Part shown: positions 5,434 through 43,969 of the stretch, one piece after another | Numbering within the stretch: the first letter of the stretch is position 1 | Layout of the letters: each line of letters starts with the position of its first letter | DNA from: Escherichia phage SUT_E520 | Reading direction: 5' to 3' (one strand) | Sequence record: OQ990040 | Length of the DNA stretch: 64,000 nt | The notes under the pieces: generated by a model | Database searches by the model: none | What the model was told of the DNA's origin: nothing | The model's input: the letters and a program-made list of their open reading frames with translations, nothing else | Position numbers and translations under genes: made by a program

Positions 5434-5451
5434 GCAGGGCAATTGCCCTGC
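5434..5451. repeat. 18-bp perfect palindrome gcagggcaattgccctgc
   Basis: self-complementary sequence directly upstream of the iteron array. Confidence 0.6.
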
Positions 5452-5456
5452 GCTTT

Positions 5457-6056
5457 TGTGCAAATCCGACATTTGCCCCCATGGATTACGCGTGGGCGTG
5501 TATGTGCGAATCCGACAATTTTTGGTAGTGTGCAAATCCGACCCGAAAAATTTTTATAATGTGCGGATCCGACAATGAATTTTCCTAAAAACTCCAGCAA
5601 TCCGATGCTGCGCATCAATCCTGTGGAATTAACTAGAATATGTGCAAATCCGACATGGGTTTATTTGTGCGAATCCGACAAGATTTTTGTGACTTCGATT
5701 GGAGAGTGTGTGATTGTAAGAGTTTGGGGAGAAGTTGAGAGATCGAGAAAAATTTGAGGGAACTGCGAGAGGGGCGCATGTTTGGTGCGTAGCACCTGAT
5801 TTGCGGGGATTTTGGGGAAGAGTTGAGAAGATTTGGGTTAATTTGAGATTAGTGCAGATAAAGTAAAATCTTATTAGCTAAATGGGGCAAAATAGCTTGA
5901 CAAGTGAAAGTTTCTGTGGCTCTAAAAACTCAGGCAATCATGGGCCTTCGGCCCGAAATAATGCTGCCATTTTCAAGAGATTATATGTTCCTAAAAACTT
6001 AGGCAATTGTGCAAATCCGACCATAAATTTCTAGAAACACAATGTGCAAATCCGAC
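5457..6056. repeat. iteron array: 8 copies of 14-bp TGTGC(A/G)(A/G)ATCCGAC
   Basis: copies at 5457, 5502, 5529, 5559, 5641, 5666, 6008 and 6043, irregular spacing, same orientation. Confidence 0.7.
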
Positions 6057-6100
6057 AGTAATTTCTGGAAATGTGTTTTCAAAAAATGTCTCCTAGAAAT

Positions 6101-6173
6101 AACCGCCCTCCCCATAACCGCCCTGTATTAAACCGCCTAGTATATGTTCCTAGAAACTTAGGAGAACCGCCCT
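6101..6173. repeat. four copies of AACCGCC(C)T
   Basis: copies at 6101, 6116, 6131 and 6165. Confidence 0.5.
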
Positions 6174-6593
6174 AGAAAGAGTGAGTATTTCGTGAGAACT
6201 CTGGAGTTTCTAGGAAAGTGTTGTGCCATCCTAGCAGATGAGCGGCAACAGGTGTATCATCTTGAATGTAAATTATGTGGTCAAAAGTTTTACTTTTATT
6301 TTAAATATAAGATCCCCCAGGGTTCTCATATAGAGCTTTGCCCCCGCCAGAAGGTCTCGTGATGTTTCTAGCAATTTATATTAAATTACTTATTAACTTG
6401 TCCTGTCGCTCCGTATCCTCCGCTACAAGTTAGTAATTTTAAATTACTGAACCACCACACCTTCTGTGTGGCAACTCTAAATGGTTAATTCTATTAACTC
6501 ATAGAGTTATGATAACATACATTTAGCTATCTGTCAACGAGAGTTTGTATTTGAGTCTCGGTACAGGTATTGTGCACCGAGACATGCAGGATC

Positions 6594-7478
6594 TTACAGT
6601 AACTCTTGGTATGCTTTTTGGTACGCCTCAGTGTCAGTAGGTGTATCTTTTGCTAGTGCAATTAGTTCATCTGTTATCTGAATGTTCGTATTATAACGTG
6701 TGTGGAACTCGTTAGGAATTTCTAGGTATCTATTGATGAATGCTGCAGCAAGCGGTGTGACTAAACCAATCTCTAGAGATAGCTTAACTTGTTTTTCGTA
6801 GATTAAATATTGAGAATCAGATGGGGTTGGTGGGGTTACATCAATTTTCTCGGGTTCTTTTTCTGGAAGCAATGGATTATTATATAATGCTTCATCTGGA
6901 AGCACAGATTTACGCTCTTTAAATATATAAGTTTCTAGATCCGATGCTTTAGATCCTGAGTATACCGCAAAGATGCTAGCTTTACCCTGTGATGCCCTAA
7001 CTGGTAAATAACTAGTAGGATAGCTTCTTAATGCATCATGGAATGGACTTCCTGAGTACTTGTATGTATCTCCATAGAGATCATCAATATTCATTCGTTC
7101 ATCTTCAAAGATGTGAAATGACTTAAATGGTGGAATGGTGAAGTATTCCATCTGTAACCCATAAACTAAGAAACGATGTGCATATGCACTGATTTTTAAG
7201 ACTGTGAATGCTTTTTCACCTTCTTTATGGGCGTTGCCTTTTGAAGTAACTTGGTAACGTTTACAAAACATCTCTACTAGACGTTTCTCATTAATACTAA
7301 GGGTGGAGTACAGTCGTCCACTTAATCCTATAAGTGCATCGAACATAAATGCTAGTTTATCTTTTTCTTCCTGGGTTAGTTCAGGAAATGGAAGTACTTT
7401 AGCATCAGGAACACTATTATTTTTCTTAGGTTTTGTTTTACCAGCGTTTTGTCTTAGTTTATCTTTAAAGTTATACAT
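6594..7478 (-). CDS. hypothetical protein (294 aa), first gene of the minus-strand early string
   Basis: long ORF, co-directional with neighbours. Confidence 0.5.
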   Translation of the reverse strand: MYNFKDKLRQNAGKTKPKKNNSVPDAKVLPFPELTQEEKDKLAFMFDALIGLSGRLYSTLSINEKRLVEMFCKRYQVTSKGNAHKEGEKAFTVLKISAYAHRFLVYGLQMEYFTIPPFKSFHIFEDERMNIDDLYGDTYKYSGSPFHDALRSYPTSYLPVRASQGKASIFAVYSGSKASDLETYIFKERKSVLPDEALYNNPLLPEKEPEKIDVTPPTPSDSQYLIYEKQVKLSLEIGLVTPLAAAFINRYLEIPNEFHTRYNTNIQITDELIALAKDTPTDTEAYQKAYQELL

Positions 7479-24349: not shown

Positions 24350-24425
24350 TGGTAGTTAGTAGTGGATTTGAACCACTGTAGTCGCTCCGTATGAAGGAGG
24401 TGCATAACCACTCTGCCAACTAACT
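24350..24425 (-). tRNA. tRNA with CAU anticodon (Met, fMet or Ile2)
   Basis: 7-bp acceptor AGTTAGT/ACTAACT, T-arm AGTGG-TTCAAAT-CCACT, anticodon loop TTCATAC, encoded CCA. Confidence 0.65.
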
Positions 24426-24592
24426 AGTTAATTCTTTATAGGTTAGATCTAGAAGATCTTTCTTACTGATAAGTCCTTCTCTATATTGGTCAATAAACAT
24501 ATCTATTCTAGAGTTCTCTGAGACTTCTATATCAGAAAGTTCAGCAAATATTTTTGCAAGTTTATCAATATCTTCCATACATAACCTTAATT

Positions 24593-24669
24593 TGGTACTC
24601 CGGGAGGGATTTAAACCCCCGATCTCTCGGTTATCAGCCGAGTGCTTTAGATCGCTAAGCTACCGAAGC
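24593..24669 (-). tRNA. tRNA-Ile (anticodon GAU)
   Basis: acceptor GCTTCGG/CCGGAGT with G-U pairs, anticodon arm CTCGG-CTGATAA-CCGAG, T-loop TTTAAAT, CCA. Confidence 0.7.
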
Positions 24670-24670
24670 A

Positions 24671-24898
24671 TTAACATTTTGCAGCAGAACGTTTGCCATT
24701 TCTAGGTGCACCTGGAAGTCGTGCACGTTCTGCCATTCTTCGCTTAATCTTTGAGATATTTTCTAGTGTTTGTTCTTCAGGCTTAATACCTGAAACACTA
24801 CACCACTGATTACCATCCCATGCGGTAATGATCATAACACCATTACTCATGATCTTTTCTGTAAAAGTAATCCTCATTATAGCAACTCGTCTAAGCAA
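24671..24898 (-). CDS. hypothetical protein (75 aa)
   Basis: ORF between tRNA genes. Confidence 0.3.
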   Translation of the reverse strand: MLRRVAIMRITFTEKIMSNGVMIITAWDGNQWCSVSGIKPEEQTLENISKIKRRMAERARLPGAPRNGKRSAAKC

Positions 24899-25170
24899 GA
24901 GGTATATTTAAGTTTACCATCTTTATCTACTTTGATTTCGACTTCCGCTCGTGGTACTTGACGAACTACACCATGAATCATCTTATAGCGAATGCCTTTA
25001 GCTGGTTCATGCTCTTTTGGAAATACTTGCTTAACCGTTACTACCTTAAAACCCTCACGCGGTGTTAACACTACTACTTGATCACCTTCTTTGATCTTCC
25101 AAGAGCCAGGAAATTCATAGGTATAGCGTTGACCACCAGTTTGGAACACAACAGAAAGATAACGTTTCAT
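24877..25170 (-). CDS. hypothetical protein (97 aa)
   Basis: ORF; T5-type promoter motif immediately upstream at about 25180-25215. Confidence 0.4.
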   Translation of the reverse strand: MKRYLSVVFQTGGQRYTYEFPGSWKIKEGDQVVVLTPREGFKVVTVKQVFPKEHEPAKGIRYKMIHGVVRQVPRAEVEIKVDKDGKLKYTSCLDELL

Positions 25171-25237
25171 TTGGCTTCCCTCTCATTAATTTATATAAAT
25201 ATTATAACAATAAATAAGAGAGAAAGCAAATGAATTT

Positions 25238-25405
25238 TTAATAAAGTTTAGTCACTTCATAAACTATACTACGAGATTCTTTATTACGTTCTATTAAATT
25301 AGAATATGCTTTTTCAGCTTCATTTTTAGTATTAAAGTCTATAACGTGGGAGGTATTCGCTCTATTTGATTGACTATACCAGATAACTACTAATAATTTA
25401 AACAT
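25238..25405 (-). CDS. hypothetical small protein (start trimmed to avoid tRNA overlap)
   Basis: ORF 25238-25432 overlaps the tRNA at 25420; internal Met used. Confidence 0.25.
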   Translation of the reverse strand: MFKLLVVIWYSQSNRANTSHVIDFNTKNEAEKAYSNLIERNKESRSIVYEVTKLY

Positions 25406-25419
25406 AATAGTCCTTAAGT

Positions 25420-25506
25420 TGGTGCTGGGCACAGGATTCGAACCTGTAACGGGATTACTCCTCCTGATTACAAATCAGGTGCATTCAACCATTCTGCCAA
25501 CCCAGC
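25420..25506 (-). tRNA. tRNA, anticodon UGU (Thr-type) with long variable arm, 87 nt; isotype uncertain
   Basis: acceptor GCTGGGT/GCCCAGC, anticodon arm CCTGA-TTTGTAA-TCAGG, T-arm ACAGG-TTCGAAT-CCTGT, CCA. Confidence 0.5.
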
Positions 25507-25671
25507 AGAACCCGTTATTTCAACGGGATTTCTTTTTCAATAACAGGAGACTTATCAGTCATAACCGCCATTGCCATTTGTTGTAGAAATTCAAAGGTGA
25601 AGGCTACACGTTCTTCACCAATCTCTACTTCTACACGTTTCTTTTGTTTATCGATCTTGACTTTTAGGTTA

Positions 25672-25923
25672 TCAGCCATTAGAGAGTACAGTACTGGTAG
25701 TTGGCAATACTACAGATGAAGCAACAGTGTTTAAATGCTTTCTCCAGTCTAGGTTAAATTGTTTTCGAAACTCTTCATAAGGTTCTTCTGGATAAAAGCT
25801 AAAACCTCCTTTCTCATCATTCAGGATAACAGAGCCGTCAGTTTGTTCGTATGCTCGGTATGTTTCTCCAATAACAATAACTCGTTTTTCGGTACTTTTA
25901 TTACGAAACTCAAAAACGTGCAT
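25672..25923 (-). CDS. hypothetical protein (83 aa)
   Basis: ORF between tRNA genes. Confidence 0.35.
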   Translation of the reverse strand: MHVFEFRNKSTEKRVIVIGETYRAYEQTDGSVILNDEKGGFSFYPEEPYEEFRKQFNLDWRKHLNTVASSVVLPTTSTVLSNG

Positions 25924-25939
25924 AATGTTTCCTTAAAGT

Positions 25940-26015
25940 TGGAGCGGCTAGAGGGAATCGAACCCTACTCAGCGAGGCTTGGAAGGCCTGCGGCACAACC
26001 CGTGTGCTTAACCGC
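25940..26015 (-). tRNA. tRNA-Gly (anticodon UCC)
   Basis: anticodon loop CTTCCAA; 3' end TAGCCGC-T-CCA resembles E. coli tRNA-Gly(UCC). Confidence 0.65.
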
Positions 26016-26023
26016 TTATTGTT

Positions 26024-26099
26024 TGGCTGGAGAAGGAGGAATCGAACCTACCATTAACGGAGTCAAAGGCCGTTGTGCTAACCGTTACACTACTCTCCA
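26024..26099 (-). tRNA. tRNA-Gln (anticodon UUG)
   Basis: U1-A72, G73, 3' end CCAGCCA as in E. coli tRNA-Gln; anticodon loop CTTTGAC. Confidence 0.7.
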
Positions 26100-26105
26100 A
26101 TTATT

Positions 26106-26181
26106 TGGCTGGGATGCCACGGATCGAACGTGGAACCTTCGGAGTCAGAGGCCGACGATCTGCCAATTGATCTACATCCCA
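26106..26181 (-). tRNA. tRNA-Gln (anticodon CUG)
   Basis: acceptor TGGGATG/CATCCCA, G73, T-arm CCACG-TTCGATC-CGTGG, anticodon loop CTCTGAC. Confidence 0.7.
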
Positions 26182-26193
26182 ATAATTTTTATT

Positions 26194-26388
26194 CTACGGA
26201 AAAATTGTTGTTGGCTCAGATTCTTCCAAACGTTTGCCTTCATGATCAACACGAATAACGCCGCATCCTTCGCAAATCACAACTGCACCATAACCTTCTT
26301 TGACCTCAGCTTCTGTAATCAAACCAGAAAGATCACCAGTATCTTTACCCCACATATCAATGGAGCATTGTTTGCAGAAATCAGCCAT
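26194..26388 (-). CDS. small Zn-ribbon protein (64 aa)
   Basis: CKQC ... CEGC motif pairs. Confidence 0.35.
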   Translation of the reverse strand: MADFCKQCSIDMWGKDTGDLSGLITEAEVKEGYGAVVICEGCGVIRVDHEGKRLEESEPTTIFP

Positions 26389-26413
26389 ATTTTATTTCCT
26401 ATTTAAGTTAATT

Positions 26414-26490
26414 TGGGGTGGCTAGTGGAATTCGAATCCACATAGGCCTGATTCACAATCAGGATCATTAACCAATTATGATATAGCCAC
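26414..26490 (-). tRNA. tRNA-His (anticodon GUG)
   Basis: perfect acceptor GTGGCTA/TAGCCAC, D-arm TCAT/ATGA, anticodon arm CCTGA-TTGTGAA-TCAGG, CCA. Confidence 0.8.
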
Positions 26491-26856
26491 AATTGAAAAC
26501 TCGCAGGGTTAGCGAAACCTTCCTCAATTAGCATGTTCTAGAATACTAATCAAGTTATCTCCTATTGCACGCAGCTCAAGACGAGTACGAATTTTCAATT
26601 GTGGCGGCTCTCAGAAACTCTTCTACTCTAGTCTTAGCAGCTTACTCCCGAACGCATGTCGGGGAAGTCTTACTAAGCGCATCAAATAGCACCGTTACAC
26701 TTTGAGCCATTGGTGTATCAAGAAGCAGAAGGACTTGAACCTTCACGAGATAGACCATTTATCTCAGCCGCTTTATGAGGTATGTTGCAGGGAGTGGATG
26801 TTCCCTATAAACCTTTTAGGCAGCCCCGTCTACCGATTCCGGCATACTTCAGGATT

Positions 26857-26951
26857 TGGAGGTAGGTAAGGGGATCGAACCCTTACACCGTATCACTACG
26901 ATCAACCGATTTCAAGTCGGAGTCCAGCGCCAGCCATTGGATTGACCTACC
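26857..26951 (-). tRNA. tRNA-Ser (anticodon UGA), type II, 95 nt
   Basis: acceptor GGTAGGT/ACCTACC, T-arm AAGGG-TTCGATC-CCCTT, anticodon loop CTTGAAA, long variable arm. Confidence 0.65.
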
Positions 26952-26963
26952 ATATAAATTGTT

Positions 26964-27054
26964 TGGCGGAAGAGGAGAGATTTGAACTCTCAAGCCGTTT
27001 TACCAGTCAGCCACTTTCCAAGCGGTTTTCGTCGCCAATTCGATTTGCTCTTCC
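26964..27054 (-). tRNA. tRNA-Ser (anticodon GGA), type II, 91 nt; D-region atypical
   Basis: perfect acceptor GGAAGAG/CTCTTCC, G73, T-arm GAGAG-TTCAAAT-CTCTC, anticodon loop TTGGAAA. Confidence 0.55.
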
Positions 27055-27166
27055 AATAATAAGATGATGCCTCTATCACACCAGGCAGTTACGCCTCGCT
27101 GGGATTCGAACCCATTAAAACAGCTCAACCGAGATAGTAGGTTTAATTTACTCTGACCATCAAATT

Positions 27167-27243
27167 TGGTGCGTGACAAGGGATTCGAACCCTCAAAACC
27201 CGACTTCTAAGGACGGTATGTATGCCAATTCCATCAATCACGC
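27167..27243 (-). tRNA. tRNA with UAG anticodon (Leu-type) but short variable arm; A73
   Basis: acceptor GCGTGAT/GTCACGC, T-arm GAGGG-TTCGAAT-CCCTT, anticodon loop CTTAGAA with one stem mismatch. Confidence 0.5.
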
Positions 27244-27248
27244 ATGTT

Positions 27249-34643: not shown

Positions 34644-35591
34644 TTACTTGTTACGCATATCCATGATCATTTGACCATCGTAGCCAGTACCTACCACAGT
34701 CTGAGGTACACCACCTTGATACTTCTGAGCACGGATCATTTCAACTTCCAGTTGTTTCCAACGAATCATTTCAGGAGTAATGGTACGTTGCAATGCGGCG
34801 TTAGCTTCAGCTTCTTTCTTAGCTGCGTACAGTTTAGCATCTGCGTCACGTTCATTAGCAATAGCTTGGTTGTTACGAGCTTCACGATCTGCTTCTGCTT
34901 GTTTAACTTTTTGCTGTGCTTCCTGTTCAACGCGAGCAAGTTCAGCTTTCGCAGCATTAACTTGCTCTTCACGAACTTTGGTATTCTGTACCTGTTCCAT
35001 GATTACTGGCGGCAAGGTAATATCCTGAAGGAATACCTGCTTAACTGTGTAACCATATGGGCGCGCATACTCTTCAACTTCCTGTTGAATTGCAGTTTGC
35101 AATTGAGCCTGAATTTTAGCATCAAATAAATCTTGTGCTTTAGGTACAGACTTACCAAACTCACGAATAGTAGACAGTAATTTTTCAGTTACATACTTGT
35201 CTAGTGCCTGATCCTGAGTACCTGCGTTAATACGGTTAATCGGTGCTTTAGAACCATCAAACTGCAACATAACAGTCAGGTCAACAGTGGATTTAAACTT
35301 ATCCTGGCTAGGAACCTGAAGTTTATCTAATTTTACAGCAATATCTTTTGTACTAAAAGTATCGAAAGATGCAAACGGGTTTACAAGATGGAAGCCCGGC
35401 AATACTGGATTAGGGTCTACTTTACCCAGGAATGTTTGGGTTTTAACCGTACCATCAGAAACAATAGTATATGAATTAAAAGCTAGGATTAAACCTGCTA
35501 AACCAACTACAGCACCAATACCCCAACGTTTAATAGTACGAATTACTTTCTGCTCAGAAGTCAGTTCTTTCATATTTTTAGTAGCAAACAT
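34644..35591 (-). CDS. SPFH/band-7 (HflK/C, stomatin, prohibitin-like) membrane protein
   Basis: N-terminal TM WGIGAVVGLAGLILAF, SPFH-like core, long Ala/Glu/Gln-rich coiled-coil. Confidence 0.55.
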   Translation of the reverse strand: MFATKNMKELTSEQKVIRTIKRWGIGAVVGLAGLILAFNSYTIVSDGTVKTQTFLGKVDPNPVLPGFHLVNPFASFDTFSTKDIAVKLDKLQVPSQDKFKSTVDLTVMLQFDGSKAPINRINAGTQDQALDKYVTEKLLSTIREFGKSVPKAQDLFDAKIQAQLQTAIQQEVEEYARPYGYTVKQVFLQDITLPPVIMEQVQNTKVREEQVNAAKAELARVEQEAQQKVKQAEADREARNNQAIANERDADAKLYAAKKEAEANAALQRTITPEMIRWKQLEVEMIRAQKYQGGVPQTVVGTGYDGQMIMDMRNK

Positions 35592-35625
35592 ATATTTCCT
35601 TTGTTTTAGTTACAGTTAATAAAAT

Positions 35626-35700
35626 TGGCCGAGGTGACAGGATTCGAACCTGCATAAAGGAATTTAGAAGACTCCTGCCTCTCCCTTAGACTACACCCCG
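35626..35700 (-). tRNA. tRNA-Arg (anticodon UCU)
   Basis: acceptor CGGGGTG/CACCTCG, anticodon arm GGAGT-CTTCTAA-ATTCC, T-arm GCAGG-TTCGAAT-CCTGT, CCA. Confidence 0.7.
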
Positions 35701-40383: not shown

Positions 40384-40599
40384 TCACTTGCCCAGCAGTT
40401 TAAGGATATTTTCCATAATAGTTTGGGCAGATTTTTCACTCTTGTTGGTTTCAGCCAACTTTAAAGCGAGTTCTTCCTGCTGTTTCTGAATATCAGCTGC
40501 GATTTTTTGATCAGCCTCAATACGAGCTTGAAGCTCATCAGTGATAGTGGTAAAGGAAGCAACGATTTCAGTAACAGAACGTGGTTTCTTAGAGAACAT
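40384..40599 (-). CDS. hypothetical coiled-coil protein (71 aa)
   Basis: ORF in gene string. Confidence 0.35.
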   Translation of the reverse strand: MFSKKPRSVTEIVASFTTITDELQARIEADQKIAADIQKQQEELALKLAETNKSEKSAQTIMENILKLLGK

Positions 40600-40663
40600 A
40601 AAAAATATCCTTGATTAGTTAGAGAATTAGTGGATTGTAGGGGCTTCTGCCCCTATTTATCTA

Positions 40664-41179
40664 TTACTTCGCTTTACGCTTGCGAGCTGGTTTAGCAGAT
40701 TTACGAGCAGAATCACCAGTGAACTTAATGCCTACACCGTAACACAGAGCGCGAACATTATCTTTACTATACTCTACGCCAAAGATATTTGGCTTAACAG
40801 AACCAAACTGTCCACGAGTATCGCGCAATACATCTGCTGTTGGTTTACGCTTCTGGTTAACTGCCTTCTCGTAGTCTTTCATAGACATACCATTACGAGA
40901 GAACAATTCAGCCCCAGCGTTGAAACTCAAAGATACTGGGACAGATTTGTGGCCGTAATTTTCTACATACATAACCATTTTGTAGGATTTACGGGTGGCA
41001 TTTTTAGCTTTAGGCTTCTTACGAATCGGAGCCGGATTATTCAATGCTTGCGCAGCCTGAGCATCGGTAGGATGCTTACGCAGGTGACGTTCCAGACGAG
41101 CTTTGCGATTAGCCTCGGTCTGCGGGAAAGTTTTAACTGCCGGGGCTGCTTGAGTTTTTGCGTTTTTCTGCTTAGCCAT
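40664..41179 (-). CDS. basic Lys/Ala-rich protein, probable nucleic-acid binding
   Basis: 171 aa rich in K, R, A; ORF downstream of promoter 41218-41246. Confidence 0.45.
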   Translation of the reverse strand: MAKQKNAKTQAAPAVKTFPQTEANRKARLERHLRKHPTDAQAAQALNNPAPIRKKPKAKNATRKSYKMVMYVENYGHKSVPVSLSFNAGAELFSRNGMSMKDYEKAVNQKRKPTADVLRDTRGQFGSVKPNIFGVEYSKDNVRALCYGVGIKFTGDSARKSAKPARKRKAK

Positions 41180-41217
41180 TATTTGTTTTCCTTTTTGTTT
41201 ATCAATTTATGAAGTAT

Positions 41218-41246
41218 ATTATACGAGAATTTGAAGCGTTTAGCAA
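41218..41246 (-). promoter_or_regulatory. T5-type early sigma70 promoter (minus strand)
   Basis: revcomp of 41241-41246 is TTGCTA; revcomp of 41218-41223 is TATAAT. Confidence 0.55.
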
Positions 41247-41254
41247 ATGAATTT

Positions 41255-41704
41255 TTAATTTATTAACTGTAAGCTTCTTTTAATTTCAGACCTTACTTGC
41301 ATCAAAAGGACTCCTAAAGTATTATCCCCGATGCCTCGGCAAACACCCCAATATGTATCTCCCCAGGTATTTCCTTCGATCAAAGTTGCATTTTCTGTTG
41401 CTAACAGTTTATCTCTTAAATCAGGAATTGCAAACTTTAATCGTAAAAGCTCTAGCATTACATCATCTTTTACTTTATCCCAGTCAGAGCGTAGGGTTAA
41501 TTTACGTCCTCTACGTTTAGCAACTCCTGCATTTAGGGAGCGGAGTACATGAGCTACATCATCTTTTTGGTCGGATTTCATAGCCTGAAAAGCATGTTCT
41601 ACAGTATCAGCATGCCATATCTCATTTAGATATTCGAAAGTAATTGGTGATAAATAAAAGTTAGATAAGAAACTATAAGTACCTTTAAATTCAGTAATCT
41701 TCAT
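41255..41704 (-). CDS. NADAR/YbiA-like protein (DUF1768)
   Basis: FLSNFY, VEHAFQAMK and WGDTYWG...GDNTLGVLLMQVR match E. coli YbiA motifs FSNFA, SEHYFQAQK, WGDG...GKNRLGYLLMELR. Confidence 0.6.
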   Translation of the reverse strand: MKITEFKGTYSFLSNFYLSPITFEYLNEIWHADTVEHAFQAMKSDQKDDVAHVLRSLNAGVAKRRGRKLTLRSDWDKVKDDVMLELLRLKFAIPDLRDKLLATENATLIEGNTWGDTYWGVCRGIGDNTLGVLLMQVRSEIKRSLQLIN

Positions 41705-41985
41705 TTTTTACGCCCCGCATCTTTAGCCTCCTCGGCTGTATAGATATACTGATAAGCCCCTTTGGAGTAGGCTGGAGCAGTACACATTTTCTTACGCTCA
41801 ATCTCTTCTTGAGCTTTTCTTTCGCGTTCCGCTAATTCTTCGTCCAAATAAACTAAACGTTGTTCTGGAGGAGGTGGAAGACGTGTTTCTGGCTCGCCAA
41901 TATTAGCCTTTCTTATTTGACGAGGTGATTGTGCACGTTTTCTCAATGGTTTAAATCCTAATGAATTTGAGTTATAGATCCGCAT
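41701..41985 (-). CDS. hypothetical protein (94 aa)
   Basis: ORF in gene string. Confidence 0.4.
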   Translation of the reverse strand: MRIYNSNSLGFKPLRKRAQSPRQIRKANIGEPETRLPPPPEQRLVYLDEELAERERKAQEEIERKKMCTAPAYSKGAYQYIYTAEEAKDAGRKK

Positions 41986-42062
41986 AAAGCCCTCCTCACT
42001 TTCAATACGAATATTATACTAAATTATAGGGCTTTAAGCAAGAGAATTTTTTAATTTATTTA

Positions 42063-42551
42063 TCACATCTCAGCCATTTCAGCTTCAGTAATAACTGTAT
42101 TACATAAGGCGTCTACAGCCTCATTACCACTAATACCAGAATGTCCTTTAACCTTAATAAAGGTAGGGTTAGTATTATGAAAGTTGATATACTGCTGTGT
42201 TAATTTAAATGCTTCCTGCCAAAGTTCTAGATTAAGAGGAACTTCACCATCTGCTTTCTTCCAGCCTTTCCTTTGCCAAGAAAACATCCAACTTTCCATG
42301 CCATTTTTGCAATAAGCAGAGTCAGTATAGATAGCAATTGGTCTATTATCTTTTTTAACAGACCAACGTAGGGCTTCTACGATAGCTGTGAGTTCCATCT
42401 CATTATTTGTAGTTTTAGGATTATAACCAGATTTAGAACCTAAACGATCGTCGTTATCATCATAGACAATAAAACCCCAAGCACCTGGACCTGGATTAGA
42501 CTTACAAGCACCATCTGTGTAAATGTGGAAAACCGACATTATACCTCCCAA
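42063..42551 (-). CDS. rnh: ribonuclease H (RNase HI-like)
   Basis: IYTDGAC, YTDSAY and HSGISGNEAVDAL motifs. Confidence 0.65.
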   Translation of the reverse strand: MGGIMSVFHIYTDGACKSNPGPGAWGFIVYDDNDDRLGSKSGYNPKTTNNEMELTAIVEALRWSVKKDNRPIAIYTDSAYCKNGMESWMFSWQRKGWKKADGEVPLNLELWQEAFKLTQQYINFHNTNPTFIKVKGHSGISGNEAVDALCNTVITEAEMAEM

Positions 42552-42820
42552 CTAATTTTAAGACCCATGTCTACAAAGGCGGCTTCTCGGTAGTATTGAG
42601 AGAGATGATACCCCTTATCCGATAAGGTTTTTAGTACCGATTTAGCGGCTCCTGGCATTTCTCTAGGATTATATAGCCACCTAGCGTAAGGATTATCTCG
42701 AATAATTACTTCTGTATTTCCAGACTTAGCAGCTTCTACAATCTTTTCTTCTATAAACTTTAGAAAAGCGGGTACTTCTGTTAATCCTGCAAGTTCTTGG
42801 GCTTCTTTGGCTGAAATCAT
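42539..42820 (-). CDS. hypothetical protein (93 aa)
   Basis: ORF in gene string. Confidence 0.4.
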   Translation of the reverse strand: MISAKEAQELAGLTEVPAFLKFIEEKIVEAAKSGNTEVIIRDNPYARWLYNPREMPGAAKSVLKTLSDKGYHLSQYYREAAFVDMGLKISWEV

Positions 42821-43020
42821 GGCTTTTCACCTTCTGCTACACTTCTGGTTTTTGGTGGGATGGGAGGGTTAGGTTTTATAGCCGCTAATTCCCTATCTAA
42901 GAATTCCTCTATTGCTCTATCTACAAAGTAGTCATAGGGTAAATGATAATGTTCTGATAGAGTAAGAAGTTTGTGCTCTTGGCTTTCTGTTAAATAAACT
43001 TTCTTTCTAAAGAGTCCCAT
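42817..43020 (-). CDS. hypothetical protein (67 aa)
   Basis: ORF in gene string. Confidence 0.35.
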   Translation of the reverse strand: MGLFRKKVYLTESQEHKLLTLSEHYHLPYDYFVDRAIEEFLDRELAAIKPNPPIPPKTRSVAEGEKP

Positions 43021-43114: not shown

Positions 43115-43969
43115 TTACACAGTGAATGGATATGCAATAGCAGGATGGTGTTCGTAACCACGAACAGTAAAATCATCCTTATTTACCCAGGTCAATACAT
43201 CCTCCAGAGTTCGGATATTTGGATTGATTTCTAGAGTAGGAGGTGCAAAGGGTTCACGATCAAATTGCTTATGCTCCATCAAAACATTATACTGATCCTC
43301 ATAGATATGAAGATTGATAATCTTCTGGCGTGCAATCCCTGGTTTAAGGCCTGTAATCTGTGCCATTAATGCTAGAAGCGTATAGCACTGAACCATGTTA
43401 AATACTTGGCCTAACAGGAAGTCATTAGATCTCTGGAAAGAGTTCAGATATAATGTATCTCCCAAAATAGAGAACTGATGAGTATGCATACATGGACGTA
43501 AGCAACCCTTTGAGAACTCCCCCGGATTCCAGAAGGTTAGAATTTCCCCACGATCATCAATGCCCTTTTTCAGATTATGATAAATCTTGGCTAGTTGGTC
43601 AAACATAAGACCATCGGAATTAGTCCACTGACGTCCTTGAACACCATAGACTCGTCCCATATCATCCTCACCTTTACGGTATGGATTGTCTAGCCAAGCT
43701 AAGTTTTCATTTGCATTAGCATTCCATGTGTTAACACCAATAGCGCGGAATTGTGCTGCTGAATCATACCCACGTAGATACCCAATCATTTCCATTATTG
43801 CTTGTTTTGCAAACGCCTTACGAGTAGTAATAAGTGGGAATTCACCTGCACCTACGTTAAAAGTAAAATCTGCATCAATAATGGTGAGGCAACGAACCCC
43901 TGTTCTGGGATTCGTTACCCACTGACCTTCTGATAGAATACGTTTTCCAACTTCTATATACTGATCCAT
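43115..43969 (-). CDS. thyA: thymidylate synthase
   Basis: 284 aa; ThyA-like including active-site region [10 protein letters not shown]. Confidence 0.7.

Follow-up and report, generated by a model that had tools for sequence, protein, structure and literature searches.

DarTG1 systems act against phages through DarT1, which ADP-ribosylates guanine in single-stranded DNA (ssDNA) and blocks phage replication (PMC11543638). The residues that contact ADP-ribose (ADPr) have been described for the NADAR protein of Phytophthora nicotianae (PnNADAR) and comprise E43, K50, K75, R79, W89, R93, E125, D130 and W133, the equivalents of E43, K50 and E125 being needed for the hydrolysis of guanine-ADPr (G-ADPr) (Schuller 2023, PMC11543638). 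A Glu at the position of E125 is regarded as the signature of the YbiA family (de Souza and Aravind, as presented by Schuller 2023, PMC11543638), and a basic N-terminal extension has been proposed for ssDNA binding in DarG1 (PMC11543638). E. coli YbiA removes G-ADPr in vitro, yet it does not rescue cells from DarT1 (PMC11125620).

NADAR proteins directed against DarT1 are also encoded by phages. The NADAR of the BASEL phages Bas32 and Bas33 was named AdfN-Bas32, for anti-DarT factor NADAR (Johannesman et al., Nat Commun 2025, PMC11825919). The tests of this protein relied on ectopic expression from a plasmid, which neutralised DarT1 toxicity in uninfected E. coli and brought RB69, T5 and Bas25 back to full titre on DarTG1 hosts (PMC11825919). 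Phage T5 itself is strongly restricted by DarTG1, and against DarTG2, which modifies thymidine, AdfN-Bas32 gave T5 no help (PMC11825919). The T4 protein AdfN-T4 (gp30.3) is likewise a phage orphan NADAR acting against DarTG1, but, unlike the Bas32 type, it neutralises DarT1 only in the course of a T-even infection (PMC11825919). The available text of the 2025 paper describes neither a deletion of the NADAR gene in Bas32 or Bas33 nor an in vitro assay of the AdfN-Bas32 protein, and holds no statement on the DarTG1 resistance of the two phages themselves. A literature search found no later papers on AdfN-Bas32.

The window compared here with these systems is a stretch of 64,000 nucleotides from Escherichia phage SUT_E520 (sequence record OQ990040), the genome of a Tequintavirus (T5-like). 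A single minus-strand ORF fills positions 41255..41704 exactly, from ATG to the TAA stop, and its product of 149 aa is a single-domain protein in which NADAR is the sole domain present. The first-pass annotation, made from the letters of the DNA, had noticed motifs close to YbiA/NADAR and had proposed a profile search for the domain. That search yielded a match to Pfam NADAR PF08719 (DUF1768) with E=7.2e-22 and 78.8 bits, above the gathering cutoff of 35.1, the alignment covering positions 9-163 of the 163 in the profile. The motif reading was further borne out by PHROG 1017 (E=1e-44), by E. coli YbiA in the PDB sequence set (E=3e-15, with the Phytophthora nicotianae NADAR at E=7e-7) and by 40% identity to K-12 YbiA (BLASTP, E=6e-21). 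The model NF053876 (DS32_2 NADAR anti-phage protein) reached 44.8 bits, under its curated cutoff of 240, and the sole PADLOC match in the region was a weak PDC-M42C match (E=5e-7) to the NADAR itself. GenBank records carry varying labels for this gene, among them GTP cyclohydrolase II, swarming motility protein (YbiA), N-glycosidase, DUF1768 protein, riboflavin biosynthesis protein and hypothetical protein, while the NADAR domain is the only one found; the 'GTP cyclohydrolase II' labels are annotation carry-over.

In the 5-kb stretch around the gene, the window is 100% identical to phages SUT_E1520 and SUT_E420 and nearly so to T5_ev212, and many other Tequintavirus records show 96-99% identity over the same stretch. 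By tblastn, the window protein is 99.3% identical to that of phage HildyBeyeler. The identity of the AdfN-Bas32 protein was established through the GenBank locus tags bas32_ and bas33_, which show that HildyBeyeler is BASEL phage Bas33 (locus tag bas33_0070) and that IrisVonRoten is Bas32 (bas32_0066). The window protein and the Bas32 NADAR are identical at 148 of 149 residues, the exception being T9 in the window and A9 in Bas32; the comparison with the Bas33 NADAR gives the same count (148/149), with E104 in the window and K104 in Bas33. Each of the two published alleles thus differs from that of the window by one substitution, and in the alignment of 36 homologues described below both positions, 9 and 104, vary across the family. 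The GenBank NADARs of Bas32 (L005:1504-1950) and Bas33 (L002:4001-4447) differ from one another at two residues, A9/T9 and E104/K104, though the paper calls them identical; the window allele, which has T9 and E104, falls between the two. Like the window protein, AdfN-Bas32 has 149 aa, comes from a Tequintavirus and has its gene downstream of rnh, flanked by the homologues of T5.090 and T5.089. Orthology and the shared gene slot, together with its being a phage-encoded orphan next to no cognate ART toxin, place the window protein in the AdfN Bas32 type. By sequence, then, the window gene is one more allele of an anti-defence gene that the literature already describes, so that the finding is correct but already known, and we infer that the allele would behave like AdfN-Bas32.

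Structure prediction and residue conservation agree with this assignment. The 36 homologues, at 48-60% identity, were aligned, and the same alignment fed an AlphaFold2 model of the window protein (mean pLDDT 97.5, pTM 0.91), which showed a predicted YbiA-like fold with an alpha-helical core flanked by two small beta-sheets. HMM alignments placed the equivalents of the nine PnNADAR residues at E36, K43, K63, R67, W75, K79, E110, D116 and W119; all nine ADPr-contacting or catalytic residues are conserved, with PnNADAR R93 replaced by K79, and E36, K43, E110, D116 and W119 are invariant in the 36 homologues. The codons of the first seven span 41375..41599 on the minus strand, as located by the HMM alignments and by reading the sequence, from which the positions of E36 (41597-41599), K43 (41576-41578) and E110 (41375-41377) were taken directly. 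The codons of D116 (41357-41359, minus strand) and W119 (41348-41350, minus strand) lie just 3′ of this span. Profile match, fold and catalytic and ADPr-binding residues together assign the protein to the NADAR superfamily. Its third catalytic residue, E110, is the Glu of the YbiA-family signature, not the Asp of DarG1 or the His of T4-type phage NADARs, and the protein is a bare core without the basic N-terminal extension.

Of the characterised NADARs, E. coli K-12 YbiA (PDB 2B3W), a riboflavin-intermediate N-glycosidase, resembles the window protein in having the same catalytic residues and a core-only architecture. The window protein differs from it in carrying W114 where YbiA has Glu, in a longer beta-hairpin at 21-32 and in lacking an 11-residue N-terminal tail, and whereas the window gene is phage-borne, that of YbiA is chromosomal and located in a LexA-controlled operon. 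Since YbiA has the same residues and gives no rescue, conserved residues alone are not enough to predict activity in cells, and the prediction that the window protein acts on DarT1 products is based on near-identity to AdfN-Bas32 and not on motifs. PnNADAR (PDB 8BAU, ADP-ribose complex) is 28-32% identical to the window protein; it is extended at the N-terminus and has an insertion in the fold, two features that the window protein lacks. DarG1 (BC4488-type, e.g. Geobacter lovleyi 8BAT, E. coli C7) carries out the same reaction, reversing the guanine ADP-ribosylation made by DarT1, and like AdfN-Bas32 it neutralises DarT1 in uninfected cells (PMC11825919). A DarG1-like architecture was nevertheless rejected on fold and residues; the window protein has neither the catalytic Asp nor the basic N-terminal extension, and no darT1 lies next to its gene. 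The T4 type differs in having His at the third catalytic position where the window protein has Glu, and the equivalents of E36 and K43 share their numbers in AdfN-T4 by coincidence. Kinship with T4 AdfN was rejected because BLASTP gave E=1.3, that is, no detectable similarity, and the 467 tblastn hits of the window protein included no T4-like record.

Taken with the published phenotype, these data make it very probable that the window gene specifies an ADP-ribosylglycohydrolase of the AdfN-Bas32 type, a minimal NADAR consisting of the core alone, which would reverse the guanine modification made by host DarT1. In the proposed mechanism, the protein would be an 'orphan antitoxin', its gene probably being the downstream member of a pair transcribed together in the T5-type early region. 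DarT1, the toxin of the host DarTG1 toxin-antitoxin system, would move ADP-ribose from NAD+ to the N2 of guanine in single-stranded phage DNA, blocking replication. The NADAR would then bind the ADP-ribose, with K43, K63, R67, W75 and K79 on the pyrophosphate and E36 and E110 on the distal ribose, roles that we infer for the individual residues of the window protein. Hydrolysis of the N-glycosidic bond between ribose and guanine would restore unmodified DNA, and replication could proceed. Phage T5, which is restricted by DarTG1 and is without the gene, supports this reading. The first-pass annotation had proposed a counter-defence enzyme, with reference to guanine bases modified by DarT-type toxins; 148/149 identity to AdfN-Bas32 supports this, narrowed to DarTG1, which acts on guanine, as AdfN-Bas32 gives no protection against DarTG2, which acts on thymine.

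The gene neighbourhood is that of the T5-type early region. The order on the minus strand is nrdA, nrdB, frd, thy, two small ORFs, rnh, a 94-aa ORF, the NADAR gene and a DUF7022 gene, followed by small ORFs and then an exonuclease, which agrees with the early-region placement given in the first-pass annotation. The location of the NADAR gene among genes for early replication and nucleotide metabolism (rnh, thy, frd, nrdAB) fits an action during DNA replication, and its position in the early region suggests that it is expressed early. The 94-aa ORF upstream of it (41701..41985, minus strand) is a homologue of T5.090 (phrog_4593, function unknown), with 91% identity and a different sequence in its last ~12 residues. 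Its TGA stop overlaps the NADAR ATG (ATGA), which argues that the two genes are probably co-transcribed and translationally coupled. Because no terminator-like site was found between them, they probably share a transcript from a T5.090-type promoter. A likely candidate for the promoter of this two-gene unit is the module TTGCTT-17-TATAAT at 42011..42054 (minus strand), upstream of the 94-aa ORF, which aligns with the annotated T5.090 promoter; it scored below the threshold of the consensus scan (3/6 in the -35 hexamer), so the call is based on homology only. A second promoter-like site, TTGCTA-17-TATAAT at 41218..41246 (minus strand), just 3′ of the NADAR stop, was identified by the consensus scan, the T5 annotation and alignment. 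This site, homologous to T5 promoter P-H207, drives the next gene (DUF7022, 40664..41179). The flanking ORFs (RNase H, DUF7022, exonuclease and unknowns) gave no ART, DarT or defence match by Pfam, PHROGs or PADLOC. A phage-internal toxin-antitoxin pair was rejected on these grounds and, with no ART or DarT gene adjacent, the NADAR is an orphan.

By blastn against T5 (NC_005859), window positions 40639-41256 correspond to 5434-6051 of the T5 locus and 41747-42542 to 6098-6892, with 490 bp in the window (41257..41746) where T5, which has no NADAR gene, has 46 bp between T5.090 and T5.089. This 490-bp segment contains the NADAR ORF and a replacement for the 3′ end of the T5.090 homologue: the C-terminus of the 94-aa ORF differs from that of T5.090 because the inserted segment starts inside its 3′ end. 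On the other side, the segment stops immediately upstream of the conserved P-H207-type promoter, which marks the downstream edge of the insertion. Similar AT-rich promoter modules (AAATTAAAAATTC..TTGCT..TATAAT) flank the two-gene unit at 41216-41264 and 42011-42054 and match annotated T5 early promoters; such repeated modules could be recombination substrates for cassette exchange. Nearly full-length copies of the NADAR gene occur in 95 phage records and the neighbouring DUF7022 gene in 432-520, which indicates that roughly one in five related phages carries the NADAR. A gene that is dispensable, patchy and absent from T5 fits an accessory anti-defence gene. Where it is present, the gene is under purifying selection: the codons that differ are synonymous in 10 of 11 cases against Bas32 and in 17 of 18 against Bas33, far above chance.

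Regarding the origin of the gene, stand-alone proteins 135-170 aa long and 50-60% identical to the window NADAR make up a large family in metagenomes. The closest cellular relatives in reference genomes are at most 53% identical (Bryobacterales, Clostridia, Planctomycetota), with Streptomyces at 43% and archaea at 41-45%. On sequence similarity, these relatives appear to fit, in broad terms, the published idea that the gene was captured from a non-YbiA cellular NADAR lineage. Within Markadamsvirinae, the Epseptimavirus UTK0009 (Salmonella phage vB_SenS_UTK0009, L006:2489-2938) has a NADAR 60% identical to that of the window, which directly follows rnh and precedes the T5.090 homologue, and so occupies another slot of the same region. 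The different insertion point suggests independent acquisition or rearrangement. T5-type NADARs with 98-99% protein identity and about 96% identity at the DNA level also occur in OR847649.1 (Listeria phage LM 4-11-1, 2093 bp) and NC_110934.1 (Klebsiella phage KPP2018); of the two, the short Listeria record looks like a mislabelled or contaminant fragment.

The breadth of substrates accepted by the enzyme is a separate question. Because a Glu-type, core-only NADAR stands nearer to the YbiA and 'NADAR' families than to DarG1 or T4 AdfN, the window protein might conceivably be a broad-spectrum eraser of nucleic-acid ADP-ribosylation that also removes cytidine- and RNA-linked adducts, a proposal we regard as doubtful rather than probable. 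If it were true, T5-like phages would be protected against ART-based defences beyond DarTG1. A stronger version, in which the main target would be another adduct or a soluble ADPr signal (cytidine-ADPr, guanosine-ADPr in RNA or the product of other ART defences) and DarT1-modified DNA one substrate of several, appears improbable. [quoted passage not shown] However, the known phage defences of enterobacteria include no C-ADPr-forming ART, and the DarTG1 phenotype is strong and agrees with the sensitivity of T5, which is without the gene.

The enzyme could also be viewed as a metabolite N-glycosidase of the YbiA type, acting on reactive riboflavin-pathway intermediates or else in nucleotide salvage or damage control, with the anti-DarT1 activity as a side reaction. 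E. coli YbiA is the best match among solved structures by both sequence and fold, E110 is the YbiA-family Glu and not the Asp of DarG1, nucleotide-metabolism genes lie nearby, and TIGR02464 (riboflavin biosynthesis intermediates N-glycosidase) was matched with E=3e-18. This match reached only 66.6 bits, under the curated cutoff of 73.7, and neither the neighbourhood nor the annotation of near-identical phages showed riboflavin genes (RibA/RibD), nor was a fusion found. With NADAR as the only domain, the link to riboflavin and GTP cyclohydrolase was rejected, and the nucleotide-salvage or N-glycosidase activity suggested in the first-pass annotation found no support here. The dispensable and patchy nature of the gene, which ~95 of 430-520 related records have and T5 lacks, argues in the same direction. 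Further, the near-identical AdfN-Bas32 has a strong and specific anti-DarTG1 phenotype, and the published tree sets the AdfN-Bas32 type apart from the housekeeping YbiA group (PMC11825919). A metabolic main function is thus very unlikely. Finally, a role as antidote or partner of a phage NAD+-using enzyme such as the T5-type Sir2-like proteins ~11 kb away, reversing self-inflicted ADP-ribosylation, would accord with the Sir2-family proteins encoded in the same early region of T5-like phages (T5.102, T5.105; EC148 annotation) but was rejected as having hardly any likelihood because T5 has Sir2-like genes and no NADAR gene, these genes belong to a separate transcription unit on the other strand, no ART or Sir2 gene is adjacent to the NADAR, and AdfN-Bas32 acts on a host toxin in uninfected cells (PMC11825919). 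The Sir2-family genes of the window, at about 52.8-55.2 kb on the plus strand, are homologous to T5.102-T5.105 and probably unrelated to the NADAR.

The AdfN-Bas32-type reading has practical consequences. The reading made from sequence picked out a real anti-defence gene, confirmed here, and the labels GTP cyclohydrolase II, swarming motility and hypothetical protein should become 'anti-DarT1 NADAR (AdfN)'. Whether a T5-like phage can grow on hosts that carry DarTG1 can probably be predicted from whether it has this 450-bp gene, and the prediction covers therapeutic candidates against E. coli and Salmonella. Concerning the mechanism, nothing new is added to the 2025 publication. Comparison with E. 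coli YbiA, which is inactive in vivo and 40% identical, could pinpoint the basis of the efficacy of a minimal NADAR on cellular DNA.

Other differences from T5 were observed around the gene, and the early operon with the NADAR gene is a hotspot for the gain and loss of accessory genes. Three small ORFs of 71, 93 and 67 aa (40384..40599, 42539..42820 and 42817..43020, all on the minus strand; phrog_2380, phrog_5321 and phrog_17630, function unknown) are absent from T5 at these positions, and the 71-aa ORF carries the wrong label 'tail length tape-measure protein' in several records. The thymidylate synthase (43115..43969, minus strand, 284 aa) shares only 30.6% identity with T5 Thy, whereas the DNA that flanks it is 91-93% identical to T5, showing a non-orthologous thy allele in the same slot. 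The thy gene of UTK0009 has 855 bp, as in the window, and those of T5 and Bas33 have 840 bp. Farther away, a cluster of 21 tRNA genes with small ORFs between them, typical of T5-like phages, occupies 24350..35700 on the minus strand; its coordinates come from an ARAGORN run on the window and not from the T5_ev212 annotation, because the first 36 kb of that genome are not base-for-base collinear with the window.
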